Source: an uncultured Poribacteria bacterium (lineage in GTDB: Bacteria; Poribacteria; WGA-4E; WGA-3G). From it: a stretch of DNA of 64,000 bases. The DNA lies in the NCBI GenBank assembly GCA_951813565.1, contig OX638351.1, forward strand, positions 4,832,001 through 4,896,000. Reading direction: 5' to 3'. Made by a program: the position numbers and the translations under genes. The notes beneath the pieces were generated by a model, which worked only from the letters and a program-made list of their open reading frames with translations, made no database searches and was not told where the DNA came from. Shown here one piece after another: positions 7,054 through 62,067 of the stretch (within the stretch, counting starts at the first letter, position 1; each line of letters opens with the position of its first letter).

Positions 7054-7087
7054 CAAATCAACGCAGCATGCGCTTGTGGCATGCTGC
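7054..7087 (+). repeat. 34 bp AATCAAC-hairpin micro-element inserted into a REP-like repeat
   Basis: Removing caaatcaacgcagcatgcgcttgtggcatgctgc restores gtagtcgcgcaattYattgc|gcctc, seen uninterrupted near 50863 and 61870. Confidence 0.8.
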
Positions 7088-7548
7088 GCCTCGGACATTC
7101 TAATTCGAAAGGGAAATTCATTTATAGAATTGGTATTATTTATTGGGACAGGTTCTTATACTTGTCCCAACGTTGTTATACCAAATTAACAGGATTTATC
7201 CTATTTTCCGGGCGGTAGGTGCGGTTTCCTAACCGCACCATAAGCGTCAATTTAAGAAAAGTAATACCAATTCTAACGTGAGCTTGATAATTAGAATAAA
7301 TTTAGATGTCCGGTGGGTAGAGCGTAGCGAAACCCATAAATCAACGCCAAATGCGCGTGTGGCATTCAGCGGGACTGAAGAGCGTTTGACATATTCAGAA
7401 TATACCTAACAAGAAATTACCGAATTAAAAAATTAATCTTCATAAAGTTTGTGCTACAACTTCTATTGTCCATTATCTTTCCAAGATAAGTTTATCAAAG
7501 TGTCCCAATAATTTCAAAGTTCACTATAAATAACCCTGCAGGGAAAAC

Positions 7549-7577
7549 TTGCCTATTAAAGTATTTTACGTTATAAT
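7549..7577 (+). promoter_or_regulatory. Putative sigma70 promoter of the export operon
   Basis: TTGCCT-17bp-TATAAT upstream of 7645. Confidence 0.55.
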
Positions 7578-7644
7578 AAAAAATAAGAAGAACTTTTAGG
7601 CCACCCAATATCACACCGTCCAAAATCCATAGGAAGATAGAGAA

Positions 7645-8475
7645 ATGGCAAAACCTACCCTTTTTAACACCGATTTTTGCTCACATTTTAAGACAAATAA
7701 GGCACACAAGACAATACTGGGTTTGATAACATGTTGCTTCCTTATGTTCGTTATAACTGTCAACGTGTTCACAGCTGATCACGTAACTGCTTCCAATGTT
7801 GAAGAAATCATCAAACATATAGATCAACTCTATCGCAGTAAAACGAGTCATGCAGACATGGAGATGCATATTGTCACCCCACATTACGAACGAACATTAA
7901 AGATGTTAATTTGGACAAAGGGAACGGACAAAACTTTTATTCGAATTACCGCACCAAAGAAAGAACAAGGGGTCGCTACATTACGTATTGGAAACGAAAT
8001 GTGGAATTACCTGCCGAAAGTAAACAAAACGATGAAGATTTCGCCATCAATGGTGATGGGCTCGTGGATGGGGTCAGATTTCACAAATGACGATTTGGTC
8101 AAAGAATCGTCAATGCTTGACGATTATACATACCAACTGATTACACCAGAAGATGCATCTGCCGATTTGCTTTATGTTCAACTTATCCCTAAGGAGGACA
8201 CCTCAATCGTTTGGGGCAAAATTATTGCAGCAGTCCGAGCAACTGATTATATACCGGTGTGGCAGCATTTCTATGATGAAAAAGGGAAATTGATGCGTGT
8301 CTTAAATTTCAAAGAGATTAAAACGTTTGGCCGCAAAACTATTCCTTCTGTCATGGAGATGATTCCACAAAACAAAGGTGGACATAAAACGGTTGTTCGA
8401 TGGTTGAGTGCTACATTCGACTCAAACGTTGATGATAAAATCTTTACACGCAGAAATCTTCAAAAAAGAAGATAA
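7645..8475 (+). CDS. Outer-membrane lipoprotein-sorting (LolA-like) protein
   Basis: Signal peptide; MWNYLP, SWMGSDFTNDDL and FTRRNL motifs typical of this family. Confidence 0.8.
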   Translation: MAKPTLFNTDFCSHFKTNKAHKTILGLITCCFLMFVITVNVFTADHVTASNVEEIIKHIDQLYRSKTSHADMEMHIVTPHYERTLKMLIWTKGTDKTFIRITAPKKEQGVATLRIGNEMWNYLPKVNKTMKISPSMVMGSWMGSDFTNDDLVKESSMLDDYTYQLITPEDASADLLYVQLIPKEDTSIVWGKIIAAVRATDYIPVWQHFYDEKGKLMRVLNFKEIKTFGRKTIPSVMEMIPQNKGGHKTVVRWLSATFDSNVDDKIFTRRNLQKRR

Positions 8476-8499
8476 TCTGTTAACCATTAGGAATCCAAT

Positions 8500-9066
8500 A
8501 TGGGCTTTAGAATAAAACAAAATTCATCTCGAAAAATCAGAACGCACACATCTATCTACCTAACTTGCCTTATTTTAAGTCTAATATTTTGCACCTCAAT
8601 TCAAGCACAAGAGTCTACCCTAACTAAGAAATTCGGTATTGGATCTCAGGGAGCTACACCCGCATTTGGAGGCATTAGTTTTCGGTATAATGGACTGGCG
8701 CCCGTATACCTTCAAACCGTCGGACGTTTTATTCTCAATGATGAAGATGGAGACCACATGTTAGGTGCAGGCGTTTCGTATGCCATCTTTGAACACCGGG
8801 GCAAGTGGAACGAGGCACGACTTTATTTCACCTTAGAAGGCGGCTGGCGCTATAAAACACAGATGGATCTCCAGAAAGATATTACCAAAACTACGACTCT
8901 GGCAGCTGGAATCGCTTTTGGTGGTGAACTCGTTTTTTCACTTGGCGGGATTCCGCTCGGATTAAACATCGGGATCGGTCAAGGAATTGGAAGAGAGATC
9001 AACAGTTCTCAGACTAAAGGGCTTGCTGGTGTTTACGTAGGAGCGGGTATACATGCCTATTTTTAG
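8500..9066 (+). CDS. Hypothetical secreted protein, probable small outer-membrane beta-barrel
   Basis: Signal peptide (IQA-QE), Gly-rich amphipathic strands, C-terminal ...GIHAYF. Confidence 0.55.
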   Translation: MGFRIKQNSSRKIRTHTSIYLTCLILSLIFCTSIQAQESTLTKKFGIGSQGATPAFGGISFRYNGLAPVYLQTVGRFILNDEDGDHMLGAGVSYAIFEHRGKWNEARLYFTLEGGWRYKTQMDLQKDITKTTTLAAGIAFGGELVFSLGGIPLGLNIGIGQGIGREINSSQTKGLAGVYVGAGIHAYF

Positions 9067-10675
9067 GTCTTTTTCTTTGTACCTGTTTTCCATATTGGTT
9101 CTTTGCATGTCCCTATTGGGATGCTCAAAGATGCTTCGTAAAGATGTTAAACCAGTTTCCGTTATACCTTTCTCTTTTGAGCAGTACGAAATTGCCATCG
9201 GTACAGCGAAACACCAGCAAACCGTTTTGACAGGGTTTCTTTCAGGAGATTCTATCGCGGAACTCGCTGTAGTGAACATTGACGAAAACGGTGCACGTCA
9301 TTTACGTATCTATACGTTTAGTGAGGACACTTGGGTGTCGAAACTTGAGACAACGCTGCGTCCAGAAGTGTTGTTCGTTGACATCGCACATATTGGTGGA
9401 CGGGACAAACTCATCACCTACGAGCATGGTCGTTTAAACTGGTTCGATCCTGAATTGGTAAGGGAACACACACTAATAGAGATTACTACCAACTACAAAG
9501 CAATTGCTGCGGGTGAAATCCCTCATGTTGACATCACCCGAGACTTAAATGGAGACGGACTGGATGACATAATTGTCCCAGATATTGATGGTTTTTGGAT
9601 AGCGACACAATTGAACAGCGGTTCGTTCACCGATCCGGTAAAACTTGGACCTCCCGACCCCTTCCTTGATGAGACACCCATGGACGAGGCGCGCAGCTAC
9701 CGCGAGGTGGGGATAAACGCCTTGACGGTTCTCTGGTACCTGAGTCGTTTCCATCAGATGGATTACGATCAGGACGGGCGCACTGATCTTGTGTTCTGGA
9801 ACATTGACCATTTTGATGTTTATCGCCAAGATGAGCACGGAATGTTTTCTACAGTGCCCGAAACCTTCACTGTTGACGTGCCGTTTGATACGGATGGTGC
9901 CTACTCAATCGCCTTCGGATTCAGTGGTGAAAACATGTTTGCACTTATCTCTGGTTTCAGAGAAAACACCAAACGGAGAGTACTATATACATTCAGAGAT
10001 ATGAACGGTGACGGCGTGACGGATATGGTGGTCCTCGCATTAGAGGGGCGCAGTCTGGGAAAACAACGAAGCCTGTACGAAGTCCATTTCGGAACATCAC
10101 GTCTCAACAGTATAGTGTTCACGCCAGATGTTAATGTGACGATCCAACCGCGAGGTACTGCTGGAGGTTTACTGCCTTGGGGCTATTCGTCCCAATGGTT
10201 ACAGGATTTTGATGGAGATAGCAATATTGACATTCTGTTCAAGGACGTAAAAACCACTATCGGTGGGATGGCCCGAGCGATGGTCGGCAAATCCATCGCA
10301 ATAGATATCGAATTATATCACATGGAAAACGGTGTCTATCCCAAAAAGCCTGTTACCACGCATAAAATCAGACCGAACTTTGATCTGTTTGAGAAAAAAA
10401 GAGTTTTCTTCCCAGCAGTACTGTTAGGCGATGTGAACGGCGACAAACGCCCAGATTTACTAATAGGGAAAGACTGGAAAGAGATGCATGTCTTTCTCGG
10501 TATACCAGGACCGAAACTATTAGCACAGAAGCCCCAAACGGTGGCAGTGGCTATGCCTGAAGACGAGCGAAATATACAATTAGTACCTCTCAATAAAGAC
10601 AACAAACAGGATATCCTCATATACCACAAGTCTACCACCGAACCGCATCGAGTAACAGTGTTGGTCGCACGATAA
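9053..10675 (+). CDS. FG-GAP/VCBS-repeat lipoprotein
   Basis: Lipobox LLGC; repeated DLNGDGLDD, DYDQDGRTD, DMNGDGVTD, DFDGD, DVNGDKRPD. Confidence 0.8.
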   Translation: MPIFRSFSLYLFSILVLCMSLLGCSKMLRKDVKPVSVIPFSFEQYEIAIGTAKHQQTVLTGFLSGDSIAELAVVNIDENGARHLRIYTFSEDTWVSKLETTLRPEVLFVDIAHIGGRDKLITYEHGRLNWFDPELVREHTLIEITTNYKAIAAGEIPHVDITRDLNGDGLDDIIVPDIDGFWIATQLNSGSFTDPVKLGPPDPFLDETPMDEARSYREVGINALTVLWYLSRFHQMDYDQDGRTDLVFWNIDHFDVYRQDEHGMFSTVPETFTVDVPFDTDGAYSIAFGFSGENMFALISGFRENTKRRVLYTFRDMNGDGVTDMVVLALEGRSLGKQRSLYEVHFGTSRLNSIVFTPDVNVTIQPRGTAGGLLPWGYSSQWLQDFDGDSNIDILFKDVKTTIGGMARAMVGKSIAIDIELYHMENGVYPKKPVTTHKIRPNFDLFEKKRVFFPAVLLGDVNGDKRPDLLIGKDWKEMHVFLGIPGPKLLAQKPQTVAVAMPEDERNIQLVPLNKDNKQDILIYHKSTTEPHRVTVLVAR

Positions 10676-10720
10676 GCAAATCATCGGTTTACTTCTTAAG
10701 TAATCCATTTACCTACTACT

Positions 10721-11935
10721 ATGATACTCAAAATTGCGTTCCGCAACATCTTCCGACAAAAGCGACGTACAATCCTAACTGCCCTCGCCATGATTGTCGG
10801 GTTTACACTCTCCTCAATAGTCATCGGTCTATCTGATGGTGCGTATTCTAATATCATTGAGATGTTTACCGGAAGCCGTATCGGCCACATTCAGGTGCAT
10901 CGTGAAGGCTATCATGATAAACCATCTATCTATAAAACGATTAGTGACTATGAATCCATTGGTGAAACAATTCATAGTAACACGAATGTTAAAGCGTGGA
11001 CACCAAGAGTTTATGCAGGTGGACTCGGTTCGGTTGGTGAAAAAAGCACGGCTGTACGAATCATTGGGGTTGATGTGGCACGAGAGACCAAAGCAACTCA
11101 ATTTGATAAGAAAGTGTTTGAAGGGAATACTTTAGCTAAAACTGCTTCGCGTGAAGCTGTTATTGGGAAAGGACTTGCGAGAACACTTTCTGCAACGTTG
11201 GGCAGTAAAATCGTGATTTTTTCGCAAGCTGCCGACGGTTCAATTGCAAATGACGAGTATACGATTGTTGGTATTACAGAAAGTGACGATAACATAACGG
11301 ATCGGATAACCTGTTATCTACACATTGAAGATGCACAGGAACTATTTGTACTTGAGGGACGTGTCCACGAAATCGTTGTGATTGTATCAAATATCAATAA
11401 GGTTGGCAAAATAACCGAAGCAATTAAAGAAAGTCTTAACGATTCAACGTTTGAGGTCCTACCTTGGCAAGTGGTAGCAAAGTCCTTTTATGATGCGATG
11501 CAGACTGATAAGCAAGGAGATGCTGTTGCACGTCTCATCATTATGCTTATTGTTGCGATTGGCGTTCTCAACACCGTCCTGATGTCCGTGTTGGAGCGGA
11601 CTCGTGAATACGGTGTGCTGAAGGCGGTTGGAACAAAACCTATCCAAATTTTCTGGTTAGTTATCTGTGAAGTGGTGATCATCACTATTGGCAGCATTGC
11701 TATTGGTGCCTTACTCGGTGTTATAATCAATTATGTGCTGTCCATACACGGTCTCACTTATGCTGAAGGGTTGACTCTCGGCGGCGTTGAATTTGGAACA
11801 ATGTATGCTGAAGTCAACGCTCAATGCGTATTGATTCCAGGTATCACTGTTATGTTGTCGGCGACACTTGTCGGTTTGTTTCCAGCAATAAAAGCTGCCC
11901 GGATTATGCCTGCAAAAGCGATGCGAACACATTAA
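10721..11935 (+). CDS. ABC transporter permease, LolC/E-MacB/FtsX family
   Basis: AFRNIFRQKRRT, MSVLERTREYGVLKAVG; 1+3 TM layout. Confidence 0.9.
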   Translation: MILKIAFRNIFRQKRRTILTALAMIVGFTLSSIVIGLSDGAYSNIIEMFTGSRIGHIQVHREGYHDKPSIYKTISDYESIGETIHSNTNVKAWTPRVYAGGLGSVGEKSTAVRIIGVDVARETKATQFDKKVFEGNTLAKTASREAVIGKGLARTLSATLGSKIVIFSQAADGSIANDEYTIVGITESDDNITDRITCYLHIEDAQELFVLEGRVHEIVVIVSNINKVGKITEAIKESLNDSTFEVLPWQVVAKSFYDAMQTDKQGDAVARLIIMLIVAIGVLNTVLMSVLERTREYGVLKAVGTKPIQIFWLVICEVVIITIGSIAIGALLGVIINYVLSIHGLTYAEGLTLGGVEFGTMYAEVNAQCVLIPGITVMLSATLVGLFPAIKAARIMPAKAMRTH

Positions 11936-12009
11936 ATGGTTGTCAGTTATCAATTGTTGGTTGTCAGAAAGAAATTCCTTTTTACTGGTAGCCGAAAACT
12001 ATCAAAACT

Positions 12010-13239: not shown

Positions 13240-13248
13240 GGAGTTATC

Positions 13249-13950
13249 ATGGAACAGACGCAAAGAACAGAAGTTATTGTGACTCAAGATGTAACAAAAG
13301 TTTATGATGCTGATAGGATTCCTGTTAATGCTCTTAACGGTGTTAACTTAACCATTCAATCCGGAGAATTTACGGCAATTGTTGGTCCCTCCGGTTCGGG
13401 AAAAACAACCCTTCTCAACATAATTTCTGGGTTAGATGCTCCCACGGAAGGCAAAGTTTTGCTTTCCGACAAGGTACTATCAGAGATGACCGGCAATGAA
13501 CTCTCTGACTTTAGACGGGATAATATTGGTTTCATTTTTCAAGCTTATAACCTAATTCCCGTCCTAACAGTTGAGGAAAATGTTGAATACATCATGCTTT
13601 TAGCAGGTGTGCCGAAAGCAGAGCGGCATGACCGAGTTGTTGCAATGCTTGAAGCAGTTGGACTAAAGGATGTTGAAGGCCGACTCCCCACGCAGCTTTC
13701 AGGTGGACAACAGCAGCGCGTCGCTATCGCTCGCGCTATGGTCTCTGAACCTACCATCATTCTTGCAGACGAACCGACAGCCAACCTTGACTCTAAAACT
13801 GGTGCAGACCTGCTTGTGATGATGAGTCAACTCAACGCGGAAACTGGCATGACGTTTATCTTTTCAACTCATGATCCGATGGTGATGGAAAGCGCAAAAC
13901 GGTTGATTACATTCCGCGATGGACAAGTAGACACTGATGAGACGAAATAG
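13249..13950 (+). CDS. ABC transporter ATP-binding protein (LolD-like)
   Basis: [29 protein letters not shown]. Confidence 0.95.
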
Positions 13951-13962
13951 CGAATTAGACAA

Positions 13963-16044: not shown

Positions 16045-16350
16045 TCAAATCTAATACCATTTCTAATTGACAAATTATCATATCGGTTTTCTGTATAAAT
16101 TACCTGTAGGTCGGGTAGGGCAGTGAAACCCATAAATCAACGCTATGAATGCCTGTTGGCATTCATACCCGCCAAATGCCTCAATGGCATTTGTAGCGTT
16201 GATTTCTTGATTTGGCGCATGCTGCACCTCTTTGAACTTGTGGACGGAAACCCACGGCGTGTGCGGACTACCTTTAAGCGCATATTTAACATCGGAATTA
16301 TTTATGCACACTGAAGTGCTACCGTTTATTCAGACCAAAATTTAGCAAAG

Positions 16351-17190
16351 TTAAGACAAGTTTTTTTGCTCAAATTCCACAGGTGTCAAATACCCTAACG
16401 CTGAATGAGGGCGTTTGTGATTATACACTTGCGTAATAAAATGCCCAATGCGGGCTCTCGCTTCGTGGATGTTCTCATAGGCGTTGAGATGAACTTCTTC
16501 TTCCTTGAGCGTGCGGATAAGTCTTTCAGCATATCCGTTCTCCCAAGGACACCCTCTTCGGGCGACTGAAATCTCTATCCCATGATACCTAAGCAGTGAG
16601 ATATACGCATCTGAAAGATACTGAACGCCTTGATCAGAATGATGGATCTCTGGAACACTTTGACATAATGCTGTCTCTAAGGGTTTCAACGCCAGAGATT
16701 GCGTCAAGTGTCGACTGATATGCCACCCCCTGATCATGCGAGTGAAGACATCCATGAGCAGACAAACATAGATGAAGTGTCCTTTGAGACGGACGTAGGT
16801 AATATCGCCTACCCAGACCTGATCACATCGGGAGACATCAAGGTTTTCAAGGCGATTACCCCAGGGACGCACACCCGCAACGGATGTCGTGGTTTGACAG
16901 ACACGTTTGACAGAAACCGAGAGGTTGGCGGATTTCATCAATCGGGCAACACGCTTATACCCGATGGTGTATCCGCCACGCACTAACAACTGTGTGATAC
17001 GTCTATATCCGTATGTTGGATATAGCAAAGATAACTTCTCTATTTCATCCCGGAGGCCCGCTTCACACGGGTCCTGCTTGGGGTGATAATAGAGATTGCT
17101 TCGGTTGAAACCGAGCGTCTCACATATCTGCCGAACCGAAAAGTCTATCCGTAATGCTTCAACCATTTCTCGCTGCTCCATCGGGGTCAA
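16351..17190 (-). CDS. IS3 transposase OrfB (integrase core)
   Basis: YGYRR, WVGDITY, HHSDQG, NGYAER, YN..RPHSAL; DDE intact. Confidence 0.93.
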   Translation of the reverse strand: MTPMEQREMVEALRIDFSVRQICETLGFNRSNLYYHPKQDPCEAGLRDEIEKLSLLYPTYGYRRITQLLVRGGYTIGYKRVARLMKSANLSVSVKRVCQTTTSVAGVRPWGNRLENLDVSRCDQVWVGDITYVRLKGHFIYVCLLMDVFTRMIRGWHISRHLTQSLALKPLETALCQSVPEIHHSDQGVQYLSDAYISLLRYHGIEISVARRGCPWENGYAERLIRTLKEEEVHLNAYENIHEARARIGHFITQVYNHKRPHSALGYLTPVEFEQKNLS

Positions 17191-17477
17191 CTCAAGTAAG
17201 TTGAGGCTTTTTTTTGGATGTCAAGTGCCAGGGTCAACCGCCCAACGAGTTGCTCAAGTTGGGCGATCCGATCCGCAGAGGCATCAGACTGTTTATCAGC
17301 GGGTTCAAAGAGGGTCGCCGCATTTTCAAGAAGCTGTCGCTTCCACTTTGAAAGTTGTTCATCGCTGAGGCTATGTCGCCGACACACTTCTGCTTGGGAA
17401 CTTTGACCGCTCAGTGCCTCAAGAACAACTTCGGCTTTAAACTCGGGAGTGAAGTTTCTTCGTTTTCGTTTCGCCAT
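17187..17477 (-). CDS. IS3 transposase OrfA (HTH)
   Basis: RRNFTPEFKAEVV...LSKWKRQ; A-run slippery site at 17207-17215. Confidence 0.9.
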   Translation of the reverse strand: MAKRKRRNFTPEFKAEVVLEALSGQSSQAEVCRRHSLSDEQLSKWKRQLLENAATLFEPADKQSDASADRIAQLEQLVGRLTLALDIQKKASTYLS

Positions 17478-17573
17478 CGGATACTCCTTTCAAGTAGATG
17501 GATATTATACCATAATCTTGTCTTAGAGAGTGGCCCGAATTTCCGGTGGCAGTACACACCCCTCATTTAATTG

Positions 17574-19251
17574 CTTACTATTACCCATAAGTTTATGGAA
17601 CATGTCCATCAATAAGGTTCTGACCGATATTGTTTTGTGTGTATTGGTGAAAAAGAGCAAAGGTGTCAGAAATATCACTAAGCCTTTACCATCCTCTCCA
17701 AATAACGGTCACTCCAGGTTTACCATCGGACTTTCGTCCTAAAAAGCCACCCAGTTTGGCGATCCAAACAACGACTTCAGACACAGTTGGTAGTTTTTTC
17801 GGTAAAATGTGCGTCTTATGTGTTATACAGTAAAGTGCTTTCCACTCAACTTCAGTCAATATATGTGTGCAGTCCGTATCCGGTGCCTGCCGATTGATGA
17901 TTGTCAACCAATAAAGACGCCAAGCAATCACGCTCAGCAGGGCAATAAAGCGTAGGAGTCTCTCTTGGGTTTGGAAGCGGACTTCCTCAACTTTCGTTCC
18001 TGATTTGAGGATTTTGAAATAGACTTCAATGTGCCAGCGTTGCGTATACCAGTCTACCCGTTCAATCGCATCTGAGAAATCTGTGACTTTCACATTTGTA
18101 AGGAGCAGCCATTCCACAGGTGTTGTGCCATCGGGTGGGTTCGTCTCTATCACCCATACGAGATATATTTCCACAGCAGGCAGCTCTTGGGAGCGTGATG
18201 CTTGCGAACGATGCGGTGGGAGAAGCGTCGTTTTTGTGAAACTAACGCTCAGAGTTGCTTCTCGGGCAGGTTGGGCACCACGCGCTGCAACTTGTATGCT
18301 AAACTCACCAGCAACCGGTAGACTTTCTGCTAAAGCACGCAATCTACCAACATCATTATCAACCACACGATCTTGCGCAGCACGCATTACAAAAGGCATC
18401 TCTTGTGCTTCAACGAAAAACTCATAAATATCAGCTTCACGATCACAAATGCAAATCACCTCAACACCTTCTGGGGCTTCGGATTTTATTGCCGACACTG
18501 CTTCAATCCACTTGTAGCTCTCTTTTTCTACCAGCGGTCTGGATTTCCGTTTTTTTTCTTGTGTCGGCGCATCCCGAACCCACACTTTATCTGTCAAACA
18601 CCCAAGCGGGAGCCCCGACCCACTCACGATGAGTGTCGTGTGTTTGACAAAACCATAATGGTGATGAGACGAGGCACCAATCGGACCTAAACCTTCTGTT
18701 GACGGGTGATCGGTGTAATCCAGATAGGTTGTATCTTGTATAGCAAACACACGCTGATACGCACACATCCGCGCAATCGTCTGTCTAAAGTGAGGTGCCA
18801 ATATCTTCTCTGAAGAAACCTTTTCATTATCAAATAACGATAGGCACCCTTCACCGATGCCCAATCGCCACACGCAGCGTTGATGGTTGCGGTAGGATGT
18901 GCCGCCAACGCATCTGCAACGCTGAGCAACCTTTTATTTAGACGGGCATCTCCCAAATCAAGACCCGTAAACTCTTCAATACTCCAAGATGTAGATAACT
19001 CTTTCTTGTTTGTAGACATCATTATTCACTCCAATGTATCAGATCCATAAGTGTTACTTGTGTTGGTAATAATATCTATTGAACATAACACAAATGTTCT
19101 TGATATGCAAGTATATTATGACCCAATGACCCAAGCGAAAATACACTTATCTTGACAGCACAGGTGAATGTAAATCAAGAAAATAGATGTCTGCACTTTA
19201 TGTCGAATTTATGATCAATAGTAAGAATTTCGACTTATGGGTAATAGTAAG
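17574..19251 (-). mobile_element. IS4-family (IS50/Tn5-like) element
   Basis: Perfect 19 bp IRs cttactattacccataagt (17574-17592) and acttatgggtaatagtaag (19233-19251), similar to Tn5 ends; extra degenerate end at 19207-19225; no target duplication. Confidence 0.85.
17686..19022 (-). pseudogene. Tn5-like IS4 transposase, frameshifted and with a premature stop
   Basis: LGDARLNKR..GAYR frame shifts to LFDNEKV near 18840; QDTT, DREADIYE, Y..RWHIE..FK; WRGW*RLSD stop in the conserved tail. Confidence 0.88.
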
Positions 19252-20595
19252 CCTTTAGGTAGGGGATGTCCACGGCGAAAGTTTTGATTTAAAATATACT
19301 TTTCAATCTAATCACAATGTGGTATAATATATCATACTATATTGTAACTCTTGAAGTGATAAAAGACTATATTGAAGGTCAAAGTGGACAATGAGAAAAT
19401 CTCACAAGTTCAAACTTCAACACCAATCTAACACAATCAAACTTGGTAATATGCTTGATGATATGTGGGAAATCCATGTGCATATCATGCGTTTGGCACG
19501 TAGGTATTATCGCATGTTCGGCAAAAATTTGTCTGCGTATCGTCTGAAGGCACATGTTGCGAAACTCAAAAAAACAACTAAACCACACTGGGCGGACTTG
19601 CCGAGTCAAGTTGTTCAAGACGTTGTCCTACGTTATGGTAAATCACAAGACGCATTTTTCCAAAATATAGCAAGCCGCAAATCAGGTAAAACAACGCGTA
19701 AAGTGGGTAGACCGAAAATCAAACCGAGACACAAATACAACTCCATGACCTTCACACAAGCGGGCTACAAACTTGAAGGGAACCGTATCAAAATCAACTG
19801 TATAGATACATGGTTTTCCTACCACAAACACCGTGATTTCAAAGGAACTATCAAGACAATCACAATCAAACGCGATAGGTGCGGTGACTATTGGATATGC
19901 TTTTCGTGCGAGAATGTTGACGATTCCGAACCCAAACCCAAGACAGGTAAGAGCGCAGGATTTGATTACGGAAACAAAACATTCCTCACAAGCGACGAAG
20001 GGGACACAATAGAATCCCCGCAGTTTTTCAAACAATCACTCAACACGTTGCGATCTCTCAACAAAGCACTCAGTCGTAAAGTCAAAGGTTCTAACAACTA
20101 TTATCGTGCGTGCCGTGCTTTAGCAAGACAACACAGAAAAGTTGCCCGACAAAGAGAAGATTGGCAATGGAAACTTGCCTCAAAACTTTGTGTAGAGTTT
20201 GACACACTCATTTTGGAAACGCTGAACCTTGACGGTATGAAACGATTATGGGGACGTAAAGTTTCTGACCATTCTTTCTACCAGTTTCTTCAGATATTGG
20301 AACAGAAGTGTGCGAAGCACGGCAAAAAACTTGTGCAAATCTCGCAATGGATAGCAACAACAAAACCTTGTAGTGATTGTGGATACCATAACAAAGAACT
20401 CTCTCTTTCTGATAGGCAGTGGACATGTTCCGAATGTGGTTCACACCACGACCGAGACACCAACGCTGCTATCAATATCAAACGGGCAGGCTTGGCTGCC
20501 TAAAGTGGAGCGACAGTAAGACGGTCAACTCTCTGAGAAAACCGCAGTCGCAAGGAAGCACAAGCCCCTACCTTTAGGTAGTGGGTACCTATGAC
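19252..20595 (+). mobile_element. IS200/IS605-group TnpB-only (IS1341-like) element; left end clipped
   Basis: cctttaggtagggg at 19252 and hairpin aagcccctacctttaggtagtggg at about 20563-20586; no tnpA; boundaries approximate. Confidence 0.7.
19391..20503 (+). CDS. tnpB: RNA-guided endonuclease TnpB
   Basis: RuvC-I GFDYG, RuvC-II LETL, Zn ribbon CSDCG/CSECG, RuvC-III HDRDTNAAINI. Confidence 0.92.
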   Translation: MRKSHKFKLQHQSNTIKLGNMLDDMWEIHVHIMRLARRYYRMFGKNLSAYRLKAHVAKLKKTTKPHWADLPSQVVQDVVLRYGKSQDAFFQNIASRKSGKTTRKVGRPKIKPRHKYNSMTFTQAGYKLEGNRIKINCIDTWFSYHKHRDFKGTIKTITIKRDRCGDYWICFSCENVDDSEPKPKTGKSAGFDYGNKTFLTSDEGDTIESPQFFKQSLNTLRSLNKALSRKVKGSNNYYRACRALARQHRKVARQREDWQWKLASKLCVEFDTLILETLNLDGMKRLWGRKVSDHSFYQFLQILEQKCAKHGKKLVQISQWIATTKPCSDCGYHNKELSLSDRQWTCSECGSHHDRDTNAAINIKRAGLAA

Positions 20596-24939: not shown

Positions 24940-25500
24940 TAACGTGAGTTTGATAAATCCCGTAGGGAATCAACACCGAATGCGCCTATGGCATTCGGTG
25001 GGGTAGAACGGAAATGGACAATAAAAACAGACCCTAAAGCAGGGTTATTTAGTTTTAAGAATTATCAGTTCCTGAGTTTTACTGTGAGTTTATATCGTCC
25101 GTCGGGTAGAGCTTGCGAAACCCATAGGCGTCAATTTAAGGATTTATTTCAGGTTTCACACATTTTAACCCAAACAACACCGCAACCCCGATTGTAGGGG
25201 CGGGTCTCTGTGCCCGCCCGTTGTTTAAATACATCAGATATGGCGGGGCACCAAATCAACGGTCCGAATGCCCTTTGGCATTCCCCGTCCGGCATGCTGC
25301 CAAATCAACGCTGAATGCCAAAAAGCGCATTTGGCGTTGATTCACTCCCACAAGAGCGTATATCCTTAAATTGACGGCTATGGGGCACCAAATCAACGGT
25401 ATGAATGCCTTATGGCATTCCCCGGGACCCCGCTCTACAGTGGAAAACGCCGCGTAATCATTGCAAATTGAACCTATGTAACCAAATATTTACACACCCA
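24940..25500. repeat. Nested MITE/REP/micro-element cluster
   Basis: Micro-elements at about 24967, 25252, 25301, 25389; cccataggcgtcaatttaag/cttaaattgacggctatgg IR pair; tttacacaccc MITE end at about 25499. Confidence 0.75.
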
Positions 25501-25617: not shown

Positions 25618-25745
25618 ATGGGCATGAAAATACTGACTGTCTTCGCTGTATGCTTTACATTTTCCACTGCTATAGCGTATGCGTATCAGGCAGAATTTGA
25701 ATATCGCGAAGGGGTTATGGTAGGTGTAGGTATCGGGCCTAGTGG
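25618..25745 (+). pseudogene. 5' stub of a secreted-protein gene truncated by REP/IS3 insertion
   Basis: RBS AGGAGG, signal peptide MGMKILTVFAVCFTFSTAIAYA, then runs into a GTAG REP pair at 25750-25813. Confidence 0.5.
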
Positions 25746-25851
25746 TTTTGTCGAGATTCGGAGATCGCTCCTACAGAACACCCTCTTTGTAGGAGGGAAC
25801 TTCGATTCCCGACTACTGACACGAATCGCAATTTTAGTGTAGACACTCCAC

Positions 25852-26939
25852 TAGCCTGAGTTATATCCTCATAATCATTGAGATGAACTTCTTCCTCTTT
25901 GAGAGTCCGGATGAGTCTTTCAGCATACCCGTTCTCCCACGGGCAGCCTCTCTTTGCTAATGAAATCTCAATCCCATGACGATTGAAAATGGAAATATAT
26001 GCCGTTGAAAGGGACTGAACACCTTGATCAGAATGATGGATCTCTGGCACGTTTTGGTGTCCTGCCTGTTCTAAAGGTTTCAGGGTTAGAGATGTGTTCA
26101 AATGGTGGCTCACCTGCCACCCTCTTATCATGCGAGTGAAGACATCCATAAGCACCGAAACATAGACGAAGCGTCTGTAGAGACGGACGGACGTTATACG
26201 CCAACCCAGACCTGATCGCATCAACAGATGTCAAGGGTTTCAAGCCGATTGACCCAGGGCTGTGGACCTTCAAGCGATCTCGTGGTTTGACAGCAACCGA
26301 GAGATTATCTGCTTTCATCAATCGGGCAACGCGGCGATACCCAACGGTGTATCCCAGACGCAGCAGCAAGTGCCTGATGCGCCTATACCCATATTTCGGA
26401 TAACGTCTACATAACTTCTCTATTTCCTCTCGGAGAACCTCTTGAGAAGGGGCACTTTTGGGGTGATAATAGAGAAGACTCCGGTTGAAACCGAGTGTCT
26501 CAGAAATCTCTCGAACCGAATAATCTGTTCAAAACGTTTCAATGAGTTCTCGTTTCTCAGACGCAGTTAGCTCAACCAAGTTGAGGCTTTTTTTCGATGT
26601 CTAACGCCACGGTCAATCTCCCAACGAGCTGCTCAAGGTGAGCAATCCGTTCCGCCGCGTCTTCAGAGGAAACCTTATTCCTGGATCCAAACACAGACGC
26701 TGCGTTTTCAACGAGTTGCTGCTTCCACTTTGAGAGTTGATCTTCGCTGAGGTTATGGCGGCGACACAGTTCTGCTTGTGAACTTTCACCGCTGAGTGCC
26801 TCAAGAACGATTTCCGCTTTAGACTCAGCGGTGAATCTTCTTCGTTTTCGTTTCGCCATCGGAGACTCCTTTCAAGTGAGATTGTTATTATATCACAATC
26901 TTGGTTTAGGGGGTGGCCCTAATTTCCGATGGCAGTACA
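25852..26939 (-). mobile_element. Degenerate IS3 copy (same family as 16312-17556), frameshifted and truncated
   Basis: orfA 26572-26859, orfB in fragments, end ...tggcagtaca at 26939; 3' end of orfB and the other IR missing. Confidence 0.88.
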
Positions 26940-32496: not shown

Positions 32497-32706
32497 GGGT
32501 GTGTAAATATTTGGTTATATAGGTTCAATTTGCAATGATTACGCGGCGTTTCCCACTGTAGGGCGGGGTCCCTGTGCCCCGCCACTGCGCAGGACGTGCC
32601 ATGCAACGGGCAGGCACCAAATCAACGGTATGAATGCCTTATGGCATTCCCCAGAGACCCCCTACAATAAGAGTTGAGAAGATTGTAACCAAAACTTTAC
32701 ACACCC
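32497..32706 (-). mobile_element. GGGTGTGTA-ended MITE carrying a 35 bp micro-element (32618-32652)
   Basis: TIRs gggtgtgtaaa/tttacacaccc; aligns with 30577-30753 except for the insert. Confidence 0.82.
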
Positions 32707-39297: not shown

Positions 39298-39753
39298 GTG
39301 TCATAGTAAAATCTAAAATTACTTGGACAGTTCTTTATAGGTTTGAAGCGTTTAATGTGAATGCCAAAAGGCATTCGGACCGTTGATTTGGCGCATTCAC
39401 CAAGCGCAATTCATTGCGCCTTTTACATCGACTGATAGGCGCGCTTTCATGAAGATTAATTTTTTAATTTGGTCCTTTTGATCTTTTTTCTGTCTGAATC
39501 GCGGAAAACGCGGAAAACACAGAAAATGCTATTGTGTTTCCATATTTACCTTCACAAATAAACAGGTTGGATTATCAAAACATTCTTCTTTCCGCGTTCT
39601 CCGCGTCTTCCGTGATTCAGACAACCAGATAATGAACCTCACACAAGAAAACATAAAACAAGATGTCGATGGTTAGGAAATTACCGATTTATTTTCTTAA
39701 ACTTCATCTAAGCGCGCTGATTGAATCGCATCATTAATTATAAAATCTACTAT

Positions 39754-43989: not shown

Positions 43990-44621
43990 GGGTGTGTAAA
44001 GTTTTTGTAGAAATCCGCACAACTCCTATTGTAGGGGCGGGTCTCCGGGGAATGCCAAAAGGCATTCGGACCCGGTGAATGACTAAAGACGAATGCGCCA
44101 AATCAACGGTATGAATGCCTGCTGGCATTCCCCGTATGGCATTCGCCATGGTTCATACCGTTGATTTCTTGATTTGGTGCCTGCCCGTTGCATAGCACGT
44201 CCTGCGCAGTGGCGGGGCACAGGAACCCCGCCCATAGGCGTCAATTTAAGCACACAATTACCAGATTGCCTCTTGTGGGAGGGAAACCTTATAAGCCCGA
44301 TTTATATGTATTTATCGGGGTTGAAAACCCGACAAATGCCAAAAAGCGCATTTGGCGTTGATTTGGCAGCATGCCACACGCGCATGCTGCGTTGATTTGG
44401 ACAAATGCCAAAAGCAGAATCAACGCCGAGCGCGCGTATGGCACTCGTCGCATTTGGCGTTGATTTGGCAGCATGCCGGACGCGCATGCTGCGTTGATTC
44501 ACTCCCACAAGAGGGTATATCCTTAAATTGACGGCTATGGGCACAGGGACCCCGCTCTACAGTGGAAAACGCCGCGTAATCATTGCAAATTGAACCTATG
44601 TAACCAAATATTTACACACCC
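43990..44621 (+). mobile_element. GGGTGTGTA-ended MITE expanded by nested insertions
   Basis: TIRs plus perfect 9 bp duplication ttggctatc (43981-43989 / 44622-44630). Confidence 0.9.
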
Positions 44622-44791: not shown

Positions 44792-44827
44792 CAAATCAAC
44801 GGTCCGAATGCGCGTTTGGCATTCCCC
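44792..44827 (+). repeat. 36 bp micro-element inserted in frame into the ISAs1 transposase remnant
   Basis: Removal restores ACA ACG GAT GCG (VITTDALLTQR). Confidence 0.85.
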
Positions 44828-45272: not shown

Positions 45273-45757
45273 TAACAAGTCTAAAACCCGAAGCAGCATC
45301 TGCCGAACGCTTACTGACTGGACGGCGTGGACATTGGTCAATAGAGAACAAGTCGCACTGGATGCGGGGACGGTGCTTGTAGAAGATGCCTCTCCTGTCC
45401 GATGCGGTGCTATACCACAAGTCATGGCAGCAAATCGTAATACAACATTATCGTTAGGACGATTTGCAGGGTATACAGCTATCTCTGATACAATCAAATA
45501 TCTCGCTTCAAAACCTAAACTCGTAGTTAACCCTATAAAATGAAAATTCATAAAACTGAATAACCCTGGAGCAAACAAGCGTGTAAAGTTTTTGACATTA
45601 TCTATTTCTCTTTTGTAGGAGTGCTTTGTCCGCACGATGCAAAGTAGTGAATGCTAAACGCGCATTCGGTGTTGATTTAGTCGTATCCGTAACAAATAGA
45701 GGCGGGCACAGAGACTCGCCTCTACAGCACAAGTGAAGGATATGAGAAACAATCTGC

Positions 45758-56056: not shown

Positions 56057-56079
56057 ATTTTATCTGAATTCCATTCAAT

Positions 56080-57564: not shown

Positions 57565-57627
57565 TTTCTTTTGTAGGGGAGGTGCTTAACTTGAACATTA
57601 TGAAGGATAGCGTCCATTTCTAAAATT

Positions 57628-58308
57628 TTATACAAACGCAAAAACGCGAGTTGGCGCGCCAGAACTACGTGCTAACTTTAGCGGCGCAATCACCACATAG
57701 AAATGTGTCGGTAGCTGACTCAAATTACACAAATCTTCCACATGCGGAATGCCTGCTCCCAGAAAGACAAGGTGTGCTGGCGGTAAACCGTCATGCAATG
57801 GGGGATGTCCTGCTACAGCGTCAATGCTGCATGCATCTGTACCGATAACCTTTATGCCTCTCTGGACGAGAAGTTCAGCCGCATCTTCACTAAAACCGAT
57901 CCATTCACGGTTAAAGTTCTCTTGATAAACAAATCTATCCATTCCTGTCCGCATAAAAACGATGCTGTCTTGTGGAATTTCTCCGTTTTCAGCAACCCAA
58001 GCCTCAATATCTTCGGCAGTCACTGCATCATTCGGTTTCTTAATCGCAGAAAAGTCCATTAAGACTGCGTGTCCAGTCAATTTTTCCTTCGGAATCTCTG
58101 CTACAGTAAACCCGTCTGGATACATTAGACAAGAAGCGTCAATATGTGTGGAGCAGTGACCGGACATGTCAACCCGGCTTTCAAAGTATCCATCCTTTTC
58201 TAATGTTGCCTGGTCGTAGATTTTGACAGGATCAATTGGCAACTCTCGCGGGCTATTCTCGTCAACGACATAAGACAGATCCAACACGTTTTGAAAGTCA
58301 AGGTGCAT
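57628..58308 (-). CDS. Cyclase / kynurenine formamidase-like protein
   Basis: DLS, HCSTHIDA, RTG, IGTD..SID, H...L......E.L.NL, GAPTRVFA. Confidence 0.82.
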   Translation of the reverse strand: MHLDFQNVLDLSYVVDENSPRELPIDPVKIYDQATLEKDGYFESRVDMSGHCSTHIDASCLMYPDGFTVAEIPKEKLTGHAVLMDFSAIKKPNDAVTAEDIEAWVAENGEIPQDSIVFMRTGMDRFVYQENFNREWIGFSEDAAELLVQRGIKVIGTDACSIDAVAGHPPLHDGLPPAHLVFLGAGIPHVEDLCNLSQLPTHFYVVIAPLKLARSSGAPTRVFAFV

Positions 58309-58389
58309 TTTGTTCTCTCATTCTTTTTTATCTGTTATAGATATAGTATAGCACATTTCGCATCATAATTCAAGCAGTAAAAACCGTTC

Positions 58390-58559
58390 GGGTGTGTAAA
58401 GTTTTTGTACAGAAATGACTGTCCCTATTGTAGGGCGGGGTCCCTGTGCCTCGCCAAATACCATACACGTGTTCGGCGTTGATTTGGATAAATCAGGCTT
58501 ACAAGGTCTCCCTCCACCAAGAAAGATGACCTGGCTAATAACAAAATATTTACACACCC
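58390..58559 (+). mobile_element. GGGTGTGTA-ended MITE
   Basis: TIRs plus perfect 9 bp duplication aaaccgttc. Confidence 0.88.
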
Positions 58560-58638
58560 AAACCGTTCTTTGAGTAACCTTAAAGGTGCATCCGTTGTTG
58601 TGTATTAAATGAAAACTATGTGCAAGTAAAGGAAACTC

Positions 58639-59523
58639 ATGCGTAATACAATTACTTACAGACACTGGCAGCCCGGTGATGATGACGCCGTTCTGAAATT
58701 GTTAGTGCCAGCTGAACAATGCAAGGAAGACTATTATCGGAGAAAGTTTAACGATCCATCACTTGAGCCTGAAGGCATTCGTATAGCATTAGTTGGTAAA
58801 AGGGTCGTTGGACATGTATATGGTTCTCAGACTTCGCTCATTGTTGAAGGAAAAGTCCAAGATTTTGGTTTGGTGACACTTGTATTTGTTGCTCCAGACA
58901 TGCGCCAACAAGGAATTGCAACCCGCTTGATGCAGGACCTAAATGCATACTTTGAGGAAAAAGGCTATAGAGGAAGCATTCTATATGTTGAGACTGCAGA
59001 AGCTTATCAACTGTATGAAAAAGTTGGATATCAAAAGGTTACCAGAGAGTTACGAACAGAACTTCCTGCTCGTCCCAATTCCTCTCCACTCAAATGGAGA
59101 GCGGTGAAAGCTGAAGATTTTGATATCTTACATCAACTGAAAAAGCGATGGGGAAATCAGAATTTTCCTATTTTTTGGAATCATCAAGTTAAAGAAATAC
59201 ATCAGTTTAGTATGAAACAGTATCGTGTCTTACGCCGCGGGACAAACATCATAGGTTATGCCAAATGGGATGAACCGTCTGGATATCGTCCACAAGGGTT
59301 GATTCGCGACCCAATAGCACCAGATGAAGATCCGATGGATATTATCACATCAGTCCAAGCAGAGATTACAGCAATGCATGCATGGCAAACAACTGAAGGG
59401 AGTAGATATGAAGACCCACTGTGTTCCCTCGGTTGCATACTCAAACCCACGAAGATGATCGATATGTTGGCATCCTTTGGTCAGGAGATTGATTTGTCCG
59501 AGATGCACCGGACCGTGTGGTGA
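58639..59523 (+). CDS. GNAT acetyltransferase (Eis-like), copy 1
   Basis: V.V.PDMRQQGIATRLM, A..LY.KVGY; 294 aa. Confidence 0.85.
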   Translation: MRNTITYRHWQPGDDDAVLKLLVPAEQCKEDYYRRKFNDPSLEPEGIRIALVGKRVVGHVYGSQTSLIVEGKVQDFGLVTLVFVAPDMRQQGIATRLMQDLNAYFEEKGYRGSILYVETAEAYQLYEKVGYQKVTRELRTELPARPNSSPLKWRAVKAEDFDILHQLKKRWGNQNFPIFWNHQVKEIHQFSMKQYRVLRRGTNIIGYAKWDEPSGYRPQGLIRDPIAPDEDPMDIITSVQAEITAMHAWQTTEGSRYEDPLCSLGCILKPTKMIDMLASFGQEIDLSEMHRTVW

Positions 59524-59665
59524 AGTATTATAGTAGATTTGAGAATTACTTGCACACTTTTGAACTGTCCGAGGGAATTCCGATTCCCGATATTCGCAAG
59601 AGGTCGCGATTCGGAGATCGCTCCTACAAAAAACGTGTAAACTTATTTTATATTCTACTATATAA

Positions 59666-59817
59666 ACCCAAGTTGCCACCTATTTGGCGAATGCTCTTGT
59701 GGGAGGTGTTTCTAACCCCGATTTATAACAAAAGATGTCCAGAATCAGCGAAAAATCCTTGTTTTCCAGTTAAAATAGTGGATGGCTGATTGAAATCTTG
59801 TCCGTAGCAACTTAGGT
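59666..59817. mobile_element. ACCYAAGTTGC-ended MITE (related inverted copy at 61662-61813 with 7 bp aatcata duplication)
   Basis: acccaagttgc / gcaacttaggt IRs; internal similarity to 61662-61813. Confidence 0.72.
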
Positions 59818-59922
59818 TATCATAAAAACATTATAGGGAAATCCCATGGATATAAAAGAAATTTATAGGTGGCAACTCAGGTTGTTAATAATGAAAACTA
59901 TTTTGCAAACTTTAGGGGACTC

Positions 59923-60807
59923 ATGCATAATACAATTACATACAGACATTGGCAGCCTGGTGATGATGACGCAGTTTTAGAGCTGTTAGTCCCTGCTGAA
60001 CAAGTCGACGAAAATATCTATCGAAATAAATTTGAAAGTTCACACATTGAAGCAGAAGGAATACGTTTAGCACTCCTCAATGAAAGAGTCGTGGGGCATG
60101 TATGGGGTGAACCCCGTTCATTCTACACCGAGGACAAGTTCCAGAGGTTTATAATAGTAGGAGCTGTCTATGTTAATACAGATATGCGTCGTCAAGGGAT
60201 TGCAACCCGTTTGATGCAAGAACTGCATGCACACTTCCAGAAAGCGGGCTATCGTGGAAGTATTCTTGATGTTGATACAGAAGAAGCAATTCGATTGTAT
60301 CAGAAAGTTGGCTACCAGAAATTCACGCAAGAACTTCAAACACAACTTCTACCAAATTCTAATGTCTCGCAACTCAAATGGACAGAGGTGAATCTAAAAG
60401 ATTTAAGTGCCTTTCCGCAATTGGATGAGAGATGGGCAAAACACAATTTTCCAGTTGAATGGAATTCACAAGGTATGAAAGTACATCAGGACAACATGAG
60501 CGGGTATCGCGTTTTGCGTCATGGTCAAAAAATTATTGGTTATACAAGATGGGAAGAACCTTCTGGATATTATCCACATGGGTTAATCCAGGACCCTATC
60601 GTGCCGGAGATGGACTCGATAGAAGTTATTGCGTCAGTACAGGCAGCAATCCCAGCACCGCGCGCATGGCAAACTTGCGAAGGAAGTAAGTATGAATTCC
60701 CACTCCGTTCCCTTGGATGTATACTCCAGCAAGGAAAGATGGTCTATATGGTTGCATCTTTTGGTCAGGAGATTGATTTGTCCGAGATGCACCGGACCGT
60801 GTGGTGA
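59923..60807 (+). CDS. GNAT acetyltransferase (Eis-like), copy 2
   Basis: Paralog of copy 1 with the same 294 aa length from MHNTITY. Confidence 0.85.
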   Translation: MHNTITYRHWQPGDDDAVLELLVPAEQVDENIYRNKFESSHIEAEGIRLALLNERVVGHVWGEPRSFYTEDKFQRFIIVGAVYVNTDMRRQGIATRLMQELHAHFQKAGYRGSILDVDTEEAIRLYQKVGYQKFTQELQTQLLPNSNVSQLKWTEVNLKDLSAFPQLDERWAKHNFPVEWNSQGMKVHQDNMSGYRVLRHGQKIIGYTRWEEPSGYYPHGLIQDPIVPEMDSIEVIASVQAAIPAPRAWQTCEGSKYEFPLRSLGCILQQGKMVYMVASFGQEIDLSEMHRTVW

Positions 60808-60852
60808 AGAGTATGGTCCTAAAAACGAAGGACAAGAATCTATGGAGTCACA

Positions 60853-61626
60853 TCATTGTTCTTCATTAAAATAATCAAGGATTGTATTATGCAGGATTCT
60901 ATTTGTTGCTACCAATGAAGCAGTGTCTTTTGTGATGGCTTGTCCTTGTATATCTGTCACTTTCCCACCAGCTTCCCGCGCAATAACAGTAATTGCAGCA
61001 ATGTCCCAAATACTAATCGCCGCTTCAATCACAGCATCCACTCTACCAGAAGCGACAAGGTGATACATATAAAAATCGCCAAATCCCCTTGTGCGTGCAG
61101 CATCGTTGATAAGGTTGTAAATACCGGGGAAAGTGCCTTTCTCTACAAACCATTTCAACCCGCCATGGCATACCATTGCGTCTGTAGGTTCTGAAACATC
61201 GGAAACGTTGATCGGTTCACCGTTCAGGAATGCCCCATTGCCAACTTCAGCATAAAGAAGTTCGTTTAATAATGGCGCATTAGAAACACCGAGGATAAGT
61301 TCGTCATCTTTCATTAGGGCAATCTGTGTGCCGAAGATCGGAATTTTCCGAATGTAATTCTTCGTAGCATCAATCGGATCAATAATCCACATATAAGGTG
61401 ATGTGCCTTCTTGCGTTCCGTACTCTTCACCCAAGAACCCGTGGTCGGGAAATGCCTGCGTGATGGTTTCTCTGATCGCTTTTTCCGCTTCAGTATCGGC
61501 GCGGGTAACTGGGGTTTCGTCTGCTTTTAGTTCAACTTTCAATGTATTCCCAGTATAGTATGATGTAATAATCTTTTCTGCGTTTTTTGCCGCCTCTAAA
61601 GCAACGGTTAAAAATTGGCTGGTCAT
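60853..61626 (-). CDS. Inositol monophosphatase family, probably HisN-type histidinol-phosphatase
   Basis: K.DETPVT.AD, GEE, WIIDPIDATKNY, R.RGFGDFY, WDIAA. Confidence 0.82.
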   Translation of the reverse strand: MTSQFLTVALEAAKNAEKIITSYYTGNTLKVELKADETPVTRADTEAEKAIRETITQAFPDHGFLGEEYGTQEGTSPYMWIIDPIDATKNYIRKIPIFGTQIALMKDDELILGVSNAPLLNELLYAEVGNGAFLNGEPINVSDVSEPTDAMVCHGGLKWFVEKGTFPGIYNLINDAARTRGFGDFYMYHLVASGRVDAVIEAAISIWDIAAITVIAREAGGKVTDIQGQAITKDTASLVATNRILHNTILDYFNEEQ

Positions 61627-62067
61627 GAATTCTCCTATCTATAGTTCAATTTACAATCATAACCTAAGTTGCTACGGACAAGATTTCAAGCTTGCAGACA
61701 TTGCTTTTTACTGAAAAACAAGGATTTCCAGCTAATTCTTATGCTTTCTTTTCTAAATCGGGGTTAGAAACCCCTCCTACAAGAGCATTCGCGATATAGG
61801 TAGCAACTTGGGTAATCATAGTGAAATCTAAAATTAATTGGACAGTTCTTTATAGGTTTGCTGCGTTTGTAGTCGCGCAATTCATTGCGCCTCTTCCTGT
61901 GAATCAACGCCAAATACCAAACGCGTATTTGGCGTTGATTCGCAGGTCGCGACTTTAAAACTGTAGAACACTTTGTCCGCGCCGAGTGACAATGTCCAGT
62001 TAATTGTAAAACCCACTATAATGAGACATCGTAAATCGGCGCGCTTACAAAGCGTGCCTACTACTTT

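Follow-up and report, generated by a model that had tools for sequence, protein, structure and literature searches.

The AATCAAC-hairpin family, a 33-36-base mobile element confined to one family of Poribacteria

As a kind, mobile repeats that are structured and very small are already known. Among them are the small dispersed repeats (SDRs) SDR1-8 of the cyanobacterial family Nostocaceae, reportedly described by Elhai et al. in 2008. They are said to be very small (21-27 nt) and lineage-confined, to show compensatory changes, to nest in themselves and in other repeats, and to insert precisely at a short target with no assigned enzyme. Here we examine the AATCAAC-hairpin element in a 64,000-nucleotide stretch of DNA (the window) from a sponge-symbiont Candidatus Poribacteria (assembly GCA_951813565.1, contig OX638351.1, positions 4,832,001 to 4,896,000). 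The unit of this element shares these features except for its length, which at 33-36 bp lies outside the SDR range. It also differs in phylum, in having a C|G target rather than HIP1, and in reaching hundreds of copies in a REPtron-rich genome. A preliminary description of the window had likened the unit to the cyanobacterial repeats, and by the SDR criteria the likeness extends to fold conservation, nested self-insertion and lineage confinement. SDR5 is linked to HIP1 in PMC4390886.

Repetitive extragenic palindromes (REPs) with a GTAG tag, and the REP doublets known as REPINs, are 20-40 bp tag-plus-hairpin sequences with hundreds of extragenic copies, as is the unit (excerpts of PMC8266576, PMC3116915 and 10.1101/279083). 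In these excerpts they also insert occasionally in frame and occur in double-foot forms, and the proposed REPIN intermediate resembles the 5' tail and hairpin of the unit. However, the unit has no GT[AG]G tag at its 5' foot, no cognate tnpA-REP was found for it, and it is a guest inside REPs. It moves as a single hairpin and stacks head to tail, whereas the replicating REPIN of these sources is an inverted doublet. The CGTC-tagged repeats (Rickettsia RPE-4/6, Neisseria dRS3) likewise have in-frame intragenic copies and no dedicated transposase, yet in the excerpts of PMC3733652 they are mainly head-to-head dimers, and the unit lacks the CGTC tag.

Ends and derivatives of IS200/IS605 insertion sequences (ISs), including palindrome-associated transposable elements (PATEs), resemble the unit in having a subterminal hairpin and no target duplication, and some unit subfamilies have an ATGC/TGCC-TTTA-type top that is also seen in local IS605 hairpins. 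The unit differs in having one hairpin instead of two ends and no tetra- or pentanucleotide 5' target, while local IS605 copies obey the guide rule. Miniature inverted-repeat transposable elements (MITEs) are set apart by terminal inverted repeats and target duplication, both of which the unit lacks. An integron attC site, a longer site with a RYYYAAC...GTTRRRY box pair, does not fit, as there is no integron integrase and the 3' flank is not TTRRRY. An IS110/IS1111 derivative is not suggested either, with no DEDD recombinase in the genome under study, to which that search was confined. In the way it works the unit resembles tagged REPs and the SDRs of cyanobacteria, yet it departs from the defining features of GTAG and CGTC REPs, MITEs, IS200/IS605, IS110 and attC.

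The origin and spread of REP-size repeats is a long-open question, and ends and targets are unknown for most families. Literature searches of open-access text returned no description of the AATCAAC-hairpin family. For this family both ends, about 100 targets, empty alleles at orthologous loci and naturally occurring variants of the tag are at hand, which opens the question to direct test.

Anatomy of the unit and evidence for its mobility

The host genome, G000, is 5.43 Mb in one contig and 95% complete; G001, G006, G012 and similar labels denote other compared genomes. At least 15 units consisting of AATCAAC and a stem-loop had been listed in the window, and every one was located at its coordinates. 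Most are simple units, but nested or hybrid forms occupy 16133-16206, 25301-25344, 39357-39390 and 61900-61942. A covariance model, whose training set included several window units, gave 21 full-length matches among the 23 listed in the window, including a minus-strand unit missed earlier, at 58452-58486. In the window 18 AATCAAC sites are followed by a perfect stem of at least 6 bp, whereas Markov simulations (n=50) gave a mean of 0.6 and a maximum of 3. Across G000 a perfect stem follows 653/2358 AATCAAC sites, compared with 13-61 for ten control heptamers.

Two unit callers were applied to G000. Caller 1 returned 622 units at 429 loci, of which some twelve are false calls within genes; caller 2 returned 568 strictly closed units with about 180 hairpin sequences. 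Overall, G000 carries about 570-620 units at about 430 loci and about 100 distinct sites. Lengths of 34, 35 and 36 bp account for 267, 246 and 50 of the 568 closed units, respectively. Each unit comprises two variable bases (CA, TG, CG, GA, GG or TA), AATCAAC, a 5-7-base arm, a core of the form ATRC-loop-GYAT, a 5-base arm and a terminal G.

Conservation of the fold was examined in 52 non-redundant aligned rows of 35 columns. Because the selection pattern for the rows held leader and core fixed, the AATCAAC leader in all 52 rows and the invariance of the core columns exist by construction; covariation in the arms is unaffected. The inner stem pairs are nearly invariant, while the two pairs above the foot are unpaired in 25/52 and 16/52 rows. 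Double-sided changes were observed at 6/11 pairs and number 40, compared with 16.9 in shuffles (0/500 reach 40), although related rows are non-independent. The covarying stems of the preliminary description are thus borne out; the head it called constant is not the sole leader with which the core occurs.

Mobility is evident from filled and empty sites. Deletion of a unit restores an exact 24-mer found elsewhere in G000, with peaks at 34 (149 sites), 35 (159 sites) and 36 bp (23 sites). The unit at 44792-44827 is an exact 36-bp in-frame gap relative to the intact ISAs1 transposase of G006. A second in-frame 36-bp unit, in a lipoate-ligase-family gene, is present in G000 and G006 and absent from G002 and G012 (a misplaced G017 row was left out of this comparison). 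In the sister genus, ten unit-derived extra codons occur in 8/26 parsed orthologues (30 loci), and 18/26 are empty. In G046, a REP array beside a RAYT-like gene (RAYT, REP-associated tyrosine transposase) holds 7 filled and 24 empty copies that differ by exactly 34 bp. These results show that the element makes new insertions, which leave no target duplication.

Filled and empty alleles were found at orthologous loci, in the ISAs1, lipoate-ligase-family and sister-genus genes. Empty sites were said to be rebuildable inside the window, yet exact 12+12 joins were found there for 0/8 sites tested. Elsewhere in G000 exact empty joins exist for 7054-7087 (10 copies), 44099-44133 (8 copies) and 25301-25335 (1 copy), and none exists for 32618-32652 or 44792-44827. 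A 400-kb comparison with G006 was too diverged (82%) for orthology, the ISAs1 site alone being informative. Public-run contigs, which break at repeats, contained no 34-36-base skip among the joints listed (63 further joints lay beyond the listing). Contigs of 3/4 public runs, one of which may be the source sample, bridged the unit at 45646-45679 with 0-1 differences.

The AATCAAC-hairpin family is real, and the filled and empty pairs and the covariation support its reading as a non-autonomous, structure-conserved mobile element. It is restricted to one poribacterial family, and at 33-36 bases it ranks with the smallest mobile DNAs seen.

Junction comparisons show where it inserts. The base after non-tandem units is G in 423/438 cases and the base before CA leaders is C in 342/347, in agreement with the earlier view of insertion mostly at C|G; the unit at 32618-32652 lies at C|A. 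Beyond C|G the target logo reveals a weak GG(W) preference and little else. Terminal inverted repeats and target duplications are indeed lacking, with 0-2 bases of end ambiguity at most. Each filled site was compared with its commonest empty allele, 129/417 flank pairs having an empty match. In the resulting 95 junction classes, which are paralogous comparisons and may in some cases mislead, about 58 insertions are clean (39 with a CA leader at C|G) and about 37 replace 1-4 target bases, as in several REP families where GTAGG became GTG-unit-GGG. The sister-genus coding insertion also lost three target bases, a 33-base unit giving a net gain of 30. Clean insertion is thus the majority outcome and not the rule that had been proposed. 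Junctions with replaced bases share 1-2 bases at the leader end. Two simple models, CpG deamination with a 2-bp duplication for the leader dinucleotide and a single-core serine recombinase, both misfit the CA-leader class.

Units also insert into one another directionally. At the two main self-insertion sites orientation is one-way: the 3' foot has 20 heterologous combinations and the loop 37, all in the same orientation and 0 opposite; opposite-orientation events elsewhere comprise 6 distinct cases at the leader, plus double-leader hybrids. Units stack head to tail because each insertion re-creates C|G at the 3' foot.

Range, relatives and copy number

The strict AATCAAC pattern occurs in 36/37 other genomes of the genus (0-434 copies) and in 48/60 genomes of the sister genus (0-18 copies). 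Outside the family 1-2 poor matches were found in 8/47 genomes; one unit in G086, whose contamination is 15%, was not taken to place the element beyond the family. In a scan of species genomes, 78 of the 80 loci listed, out of at least 117, were titled Poribacteria and 1 just bacterium. The remaining match, in Psychromonas, lacks matching arms and was treated as chance. Viral contigs gave 0 matches to the unit.

The core stem-loop ATRC-GCGTDTG-GYAT by itself is present in 86/111 family genomes and 2/64 genomes outside, where neither match is a unit. One of these is coding DNA (G171). The other is one spacer, present in three copies, of a CRISPR array in G058 (L458, C2:410800-414500); the array repeat starts with ATCAACG, and the likeness is probably chance. 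A CRISPR origin of the unit was rejected, as the three G000 arrays have unrelated repeats.

Two relatives carry other tags. A cousin element with the same core and an AACCCG-type leader accounts for 464 core matches in G106, which has no match to the AATCAAC pattern. In G106 and G150 (L428-L457) it has covarying CTCGS/SCGAG arms and sits in the loop of a GTAG REP, and the 30-odd loci read are all at one site of two REP variants. A sister form, consisting of a 25-base hairpin and ATG or ATT, is nested in unit loops, and 86 such hairpins in G000 are followed by ATGATT. At 44075-44151 of the window and many G000 loci it stands in place of about 4 bases of a unit or REP, within a loop or an arm, and is itself nested several deep. 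Because the core occurs with other tags, including in a genome without the AATCAAC form, the core and not the leader is the conserved handle and the lineage-wide constant.

Copy number greatly exceeds the number of sites. The 568 units occupy about 104 distinct flank pairs, 82 of them repeated flanks and 22 unique. Since some 570 units lie at just about 100 distinct sites, much of the copy number probably reflects co-amplification, gene conversion and the spread of already-filled REPs, MITEs and tandem stacks. The element is a parasite on parasites, found in REPs within MITEs and in a transposase gene. The MITE at 43990-44621 ranges from 94 to 821 bp among the first 30 copies examined. The ends of its 95-bp form resemble those of a 24-copy IS, and it is a sink for REPs and units, growing to >800 bp.

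Through unit insertion proteins also gain 10-12 residues. A conserved sister-genus gene keeps its unit as a 10-residue in-frame addition, with decay at the DNA level in one lineage (L067-L070, L088, L090-L092).

How the unit may be moved

No cognate enzyme of the unit was found by neighbourhood, profile or co-occurrence searches. G000 encodes five IS605 TnpA, five RAYT-like genes and three IS607 copies. Its Y1 genes include RAYTs at 242059 and 5070893, an IS200-like one at 3098010 and an IS605 TnpA at 228440. No unit in G000 is open-ended and encloses a gene as cargo, and no transposase adjoins units at 30 loci of 24 low-copy genomes, where open reading frames were judged by eye. The transposase, recombinase or reverse transcriptase (RT) gene flanked by the same head and hairpin, which the preliminary description had recommended looking for, was not among the loci read. 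Among the other members of the genus 32/37 have Y1 genes, as do those genomes checked that have the highest copy numbers; RT is found in 18/40 genomes, IS607 in 17/40 and a short tyrosine recombinase in 25/37 other genomes of the genus. Y1 tracks the element better than RT, IS607 or IS110, and no enzyme family tracks it fully. Three sources of mobility had been suggested. IS110-like enzymes find no support, with 0 IS110/DEDD matches in the 95% complete G000, relatives not being searched; RT was not found in most high-copy genomes; a Y1 HUH enzyme is plausible, although no Y1 gene flanked by the unit as its cognate repeat was found. A search for IS91 Y2 enzymes matched none of its controls and carries no weight.

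We tentatively favor movement of the folded single-stranded unit in trans by a RAYT/IS200-IS605-type Y1 HUH transposase. The enzyme would bind the conserved core stem-loop. AACG would serve as a guide, like the GTAG of short REPs, with a predicted cut at C|G, which matches both the 3' end of the unit and its main target. Joining would be less exact at the leader end. In favor of this reading are the mobility shown, the defined ends and C|G target, the polarity, the conservation of structure over sequence and the distribution of Y1 genes. Precedents exist among REP transposases. In excerpts of PMC8266576 and 10.1101/279083 the REP enzyme cuts at dinucleotides set by tag positions 3-4, and a change of tag retargets it. 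Cleavage is on either side of the hairpin, and the REP of a flexible enzyme has a 2-base spacer and a short stem (PMC8266576, in part). The geometry of the unit (4-nt tag, 2-nt spacer, short stem) matches that of group 3 / subclass 2.5 REPs. Tagged hairpins that lack a dedicated transposase have a precedent in the CGTC-tagged REPs (excerpts of PMC3733652).

Several observations weigh against a Y1 enzyme. The guide rule fails for the commonest left junction, C|C, and for the replaced bases, and the C|G match could be a simple extension of the stem. One-way orientation may result from target asymmetry or from loss of long palindromes. There is no overall replichore bias, though IS605 controls show none either in the rearranged G000; one of nine tests gave p=0.002 (G-leader, 50-kb windows), a signal that disappeared at other scales. 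The unit was never a cognate flank at 10 Y1 matches in G000, 30 RAYT loci and 3 more loci, nor at 21 Y1 loci from five high-copy genomes (3 unparsed), the loci read being part of the Y1 genes of the family. The repeats seen flanking Y1 genes are GTAG-type or related REPs, in which units are merely guests. With a custom hidden Markov model (HMM) no overlooked Y1 came to light in G000. Families that lack the element have Y1 genes just as often, and the unit-carrying genomes G001, G010 and G023 yielded none. Present-day enzyme presence is a weak test, however, because REPs outlive their RAYTs.

It is somewhat unlikely that there is no dedicated mobiliser at all, founder units having arisen by hairpin-directed template switching or microhomology break repair and then spread by gene conversion, slippage and riding on REPs and MITEs. 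The repeated flanks at 82 of about 104 sites, the 1-2 bases shared at the leader end of replacement junctions, the confinement of the G106/G150 cousin to one site of two REP variants and the failure of any enzyme family to track the element fully are consistent with such an origin. It accounts poorly for inserts of exactly 34-36 bp that share the same two ends, whether in coding DNA or at unique sites unrelated to one another, for the 22 sites with unique flanks, and for ends and core that are conserved across genera.

An enzyme of another family, or one since lost from these genomes, would be an unlikely reader of the core stem-loop. G023 (single contig, 92% complete) has units but yielded no Y1, RT, IS607 or short recombinase. 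It retains GTAG REPs too, with no RAYT, so that loss of a Y1 gene explains this genome equally well. The lack of a cargo-bearing open unit in G000, or of a transposase adjoining units at the 30 low-copy loci, also argues against such an enzyme. It is likewise unlikely that the element represents a new minimal transposition system, in which an uncharacterised enzyme family would read the 15-base core while interchangeable tags (AATCAAC leader, ATK tail, AACCCG leader) would set the ends and target. If true, this would provide a 34-base, near-scarless insertion module capable of in-frame insertion.

A route through RNA, reportedly proposed for cyanobacterial SDRs, is distinctly unlikely. Reverse transcription of a small RNA copy would start at a nick, with G/C microhomology at the hairpin end as its primer, and the leader end would be joined imprecisely. 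The precise hairpin-foot junction with its GG preference, the variable leader junction, the few G-U changes among stem pairs and the presence in G000 of a Cas1-adjoining RT and a Drt4 RT are in keeping with this route. However, RTs occur in just 18/40 genomes and were not found in the high-copy genomes G006, G017, G012, G063 and G070. Rfam gave sub-threshold matches only, none at gathering level; target duplication is absent; and between co-oriented genes there is a slight antisense bias (130 vs 95 sense).

Site-specific recombination is very unlikely, be the enzyme a 207-amino-acid tyrosine recombinase whose substrate would be a folded attC-like strand or an IS607 serine transposase with a 2-bp core. 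The AAC, the 5-nt mismatch-tolerant arm, the inner stem and the terminal G loosely resemble an attC fold, the short recombinase is genus-specific (25/37 other genomes), and some junctions resemble a 2-base core exchange. Against this, the recombinase was not found in the unit-bearing sister genus or in 12 unit-bearing genomes of the genus, it scores far under the integron-integrase cut-off, and no unit lies near its gene. IS607, in 17/40 genomes, has ends unrelated to the unit, and no single core length fits all the junction classes. Finally, an assembly or library artefact is virtually inconceivable: public-run contigs do break at most units, so few are bridged, but the occurrence of units across both genera, shared orthologous insertions and independent-run contigs spanning 45646-45679 rule it out.

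Some observations on these enzymes stand apart from the choice of mechanism. The 207-amino-acid protein (L066:1444-2067; G000:4771357-4771977) is the lone tyrosine recombinase found in G000. It consists of a catalytic domain only, has an upstream palindrome and is 77-95% conserved in the 25/37 congeners; no ordinary XerC/XerD match was found in G000. G000 also carries the antiviral RT Drt4, a CRISPR-cas locus in which an RT adjoins cas1, and the three CRISPR arrays (together at 811749-813284, 3989138-3996420, 1198127-1203162 and 2830673-2832349). Poribacteria are unusually rich in REPtrons, with several RAYT types that each have their own GTAG REP family (L001-L010, L100-L120, L280-L309). At least 11 REP-like families of 48-297 matches occur in G000, most without a RAYT there. 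At least 4 TnpB-bearing IS605-family groups (window 19230-20595 and others) have the guide/target pairs TTAT/AAAA, TCAT/GAGA, TTAG/AAAC and TTAA/AAAT. The left ends and targets of these local IS605 copies match the IS608 guide-target pairing rule.

Features of the window

Units and related features of the window are given in Table 1. The hybrid at 25301-25344 is probably a deletion between two opposed units.

Table 1. AATCAAC-hairpin units and associated features, in window coordinates
Feature	Position	Strand	Basis
34-bp unit, CA leader; clean at C|G, 3' arm of GTAG REP	7054..7087	+	covariance model; 10 exact empty joins in G000
34-bp unit with TA leader and hybrid arms, flanked by REP fragments	7337..7370	+	sequence, covariance model
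Nested stack: outer unit leadered at both ends; inner minus unit 16171-16206 inserted at outer leader	16133..16206	.	covariance model; nesting read from sequence
34-bp unit, ACCGA..TCGGT subfamily, A:T closing pair; in GTAG REP	24966..24999	+	sequence, covariance model
35-bp unit, GGTCCGA subfamily	25252..25286	+	sequence, covariance model
Double-leader hybrid, AATCAAC-hairpin-GTTGATT	25301..25344	.	sequence, covariance model
35-bp unit, GGTATGA subfamily; in REP loop	25389..25423	+	sequence, covariance model
35-bp unit in REP loop, at C|A	32618..32652	+	sequence, covariance model
Unit with 3' end swapped for sister-form (hairpin+ATK) tail	39357..39390	-	sequence, covariance model
MITE, 95 bp empty, grown to ~630 bp by REPs and stacked units; container only	43990..44621	.	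copy comparison
Multiply nested stack: 44099-44133 unit, sister hairpin and duplicated leader	44048..44175	-	sequence
35-bp unit at C|G in loop of like hairpin	44099..44133	+	8 exact empty joins in G000
Four head-to-tail units: 44331-44365, 44366-44399, 44400-44467, 44468-44501	44331..44501	-	sequence, covariance model
Plus-strand unit interrupting third unit (44400-44467) of the stack	44416-44449	+	sequence, covariance model
36-bp unit, in frame at C|G, decayed ISAs1 transposase gene	44792..44827	+	empty allele in G006; second filled copy in G000
Older degenerate 34-bp unit, unique flanks	45646..45679	-	covariance model; bridged by contigs of three runs
Degenerate unit, absent from earlier list	58452/58453..58486	-	sequence, covariance model
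Double-leader palindromic form between two GTAG REP halves	61900..61942	.	sequence, covariance model

The window also contains an IS3 interrupted by an IS4 element (16351-18873) and a second IS3 remnant (25739-26369).

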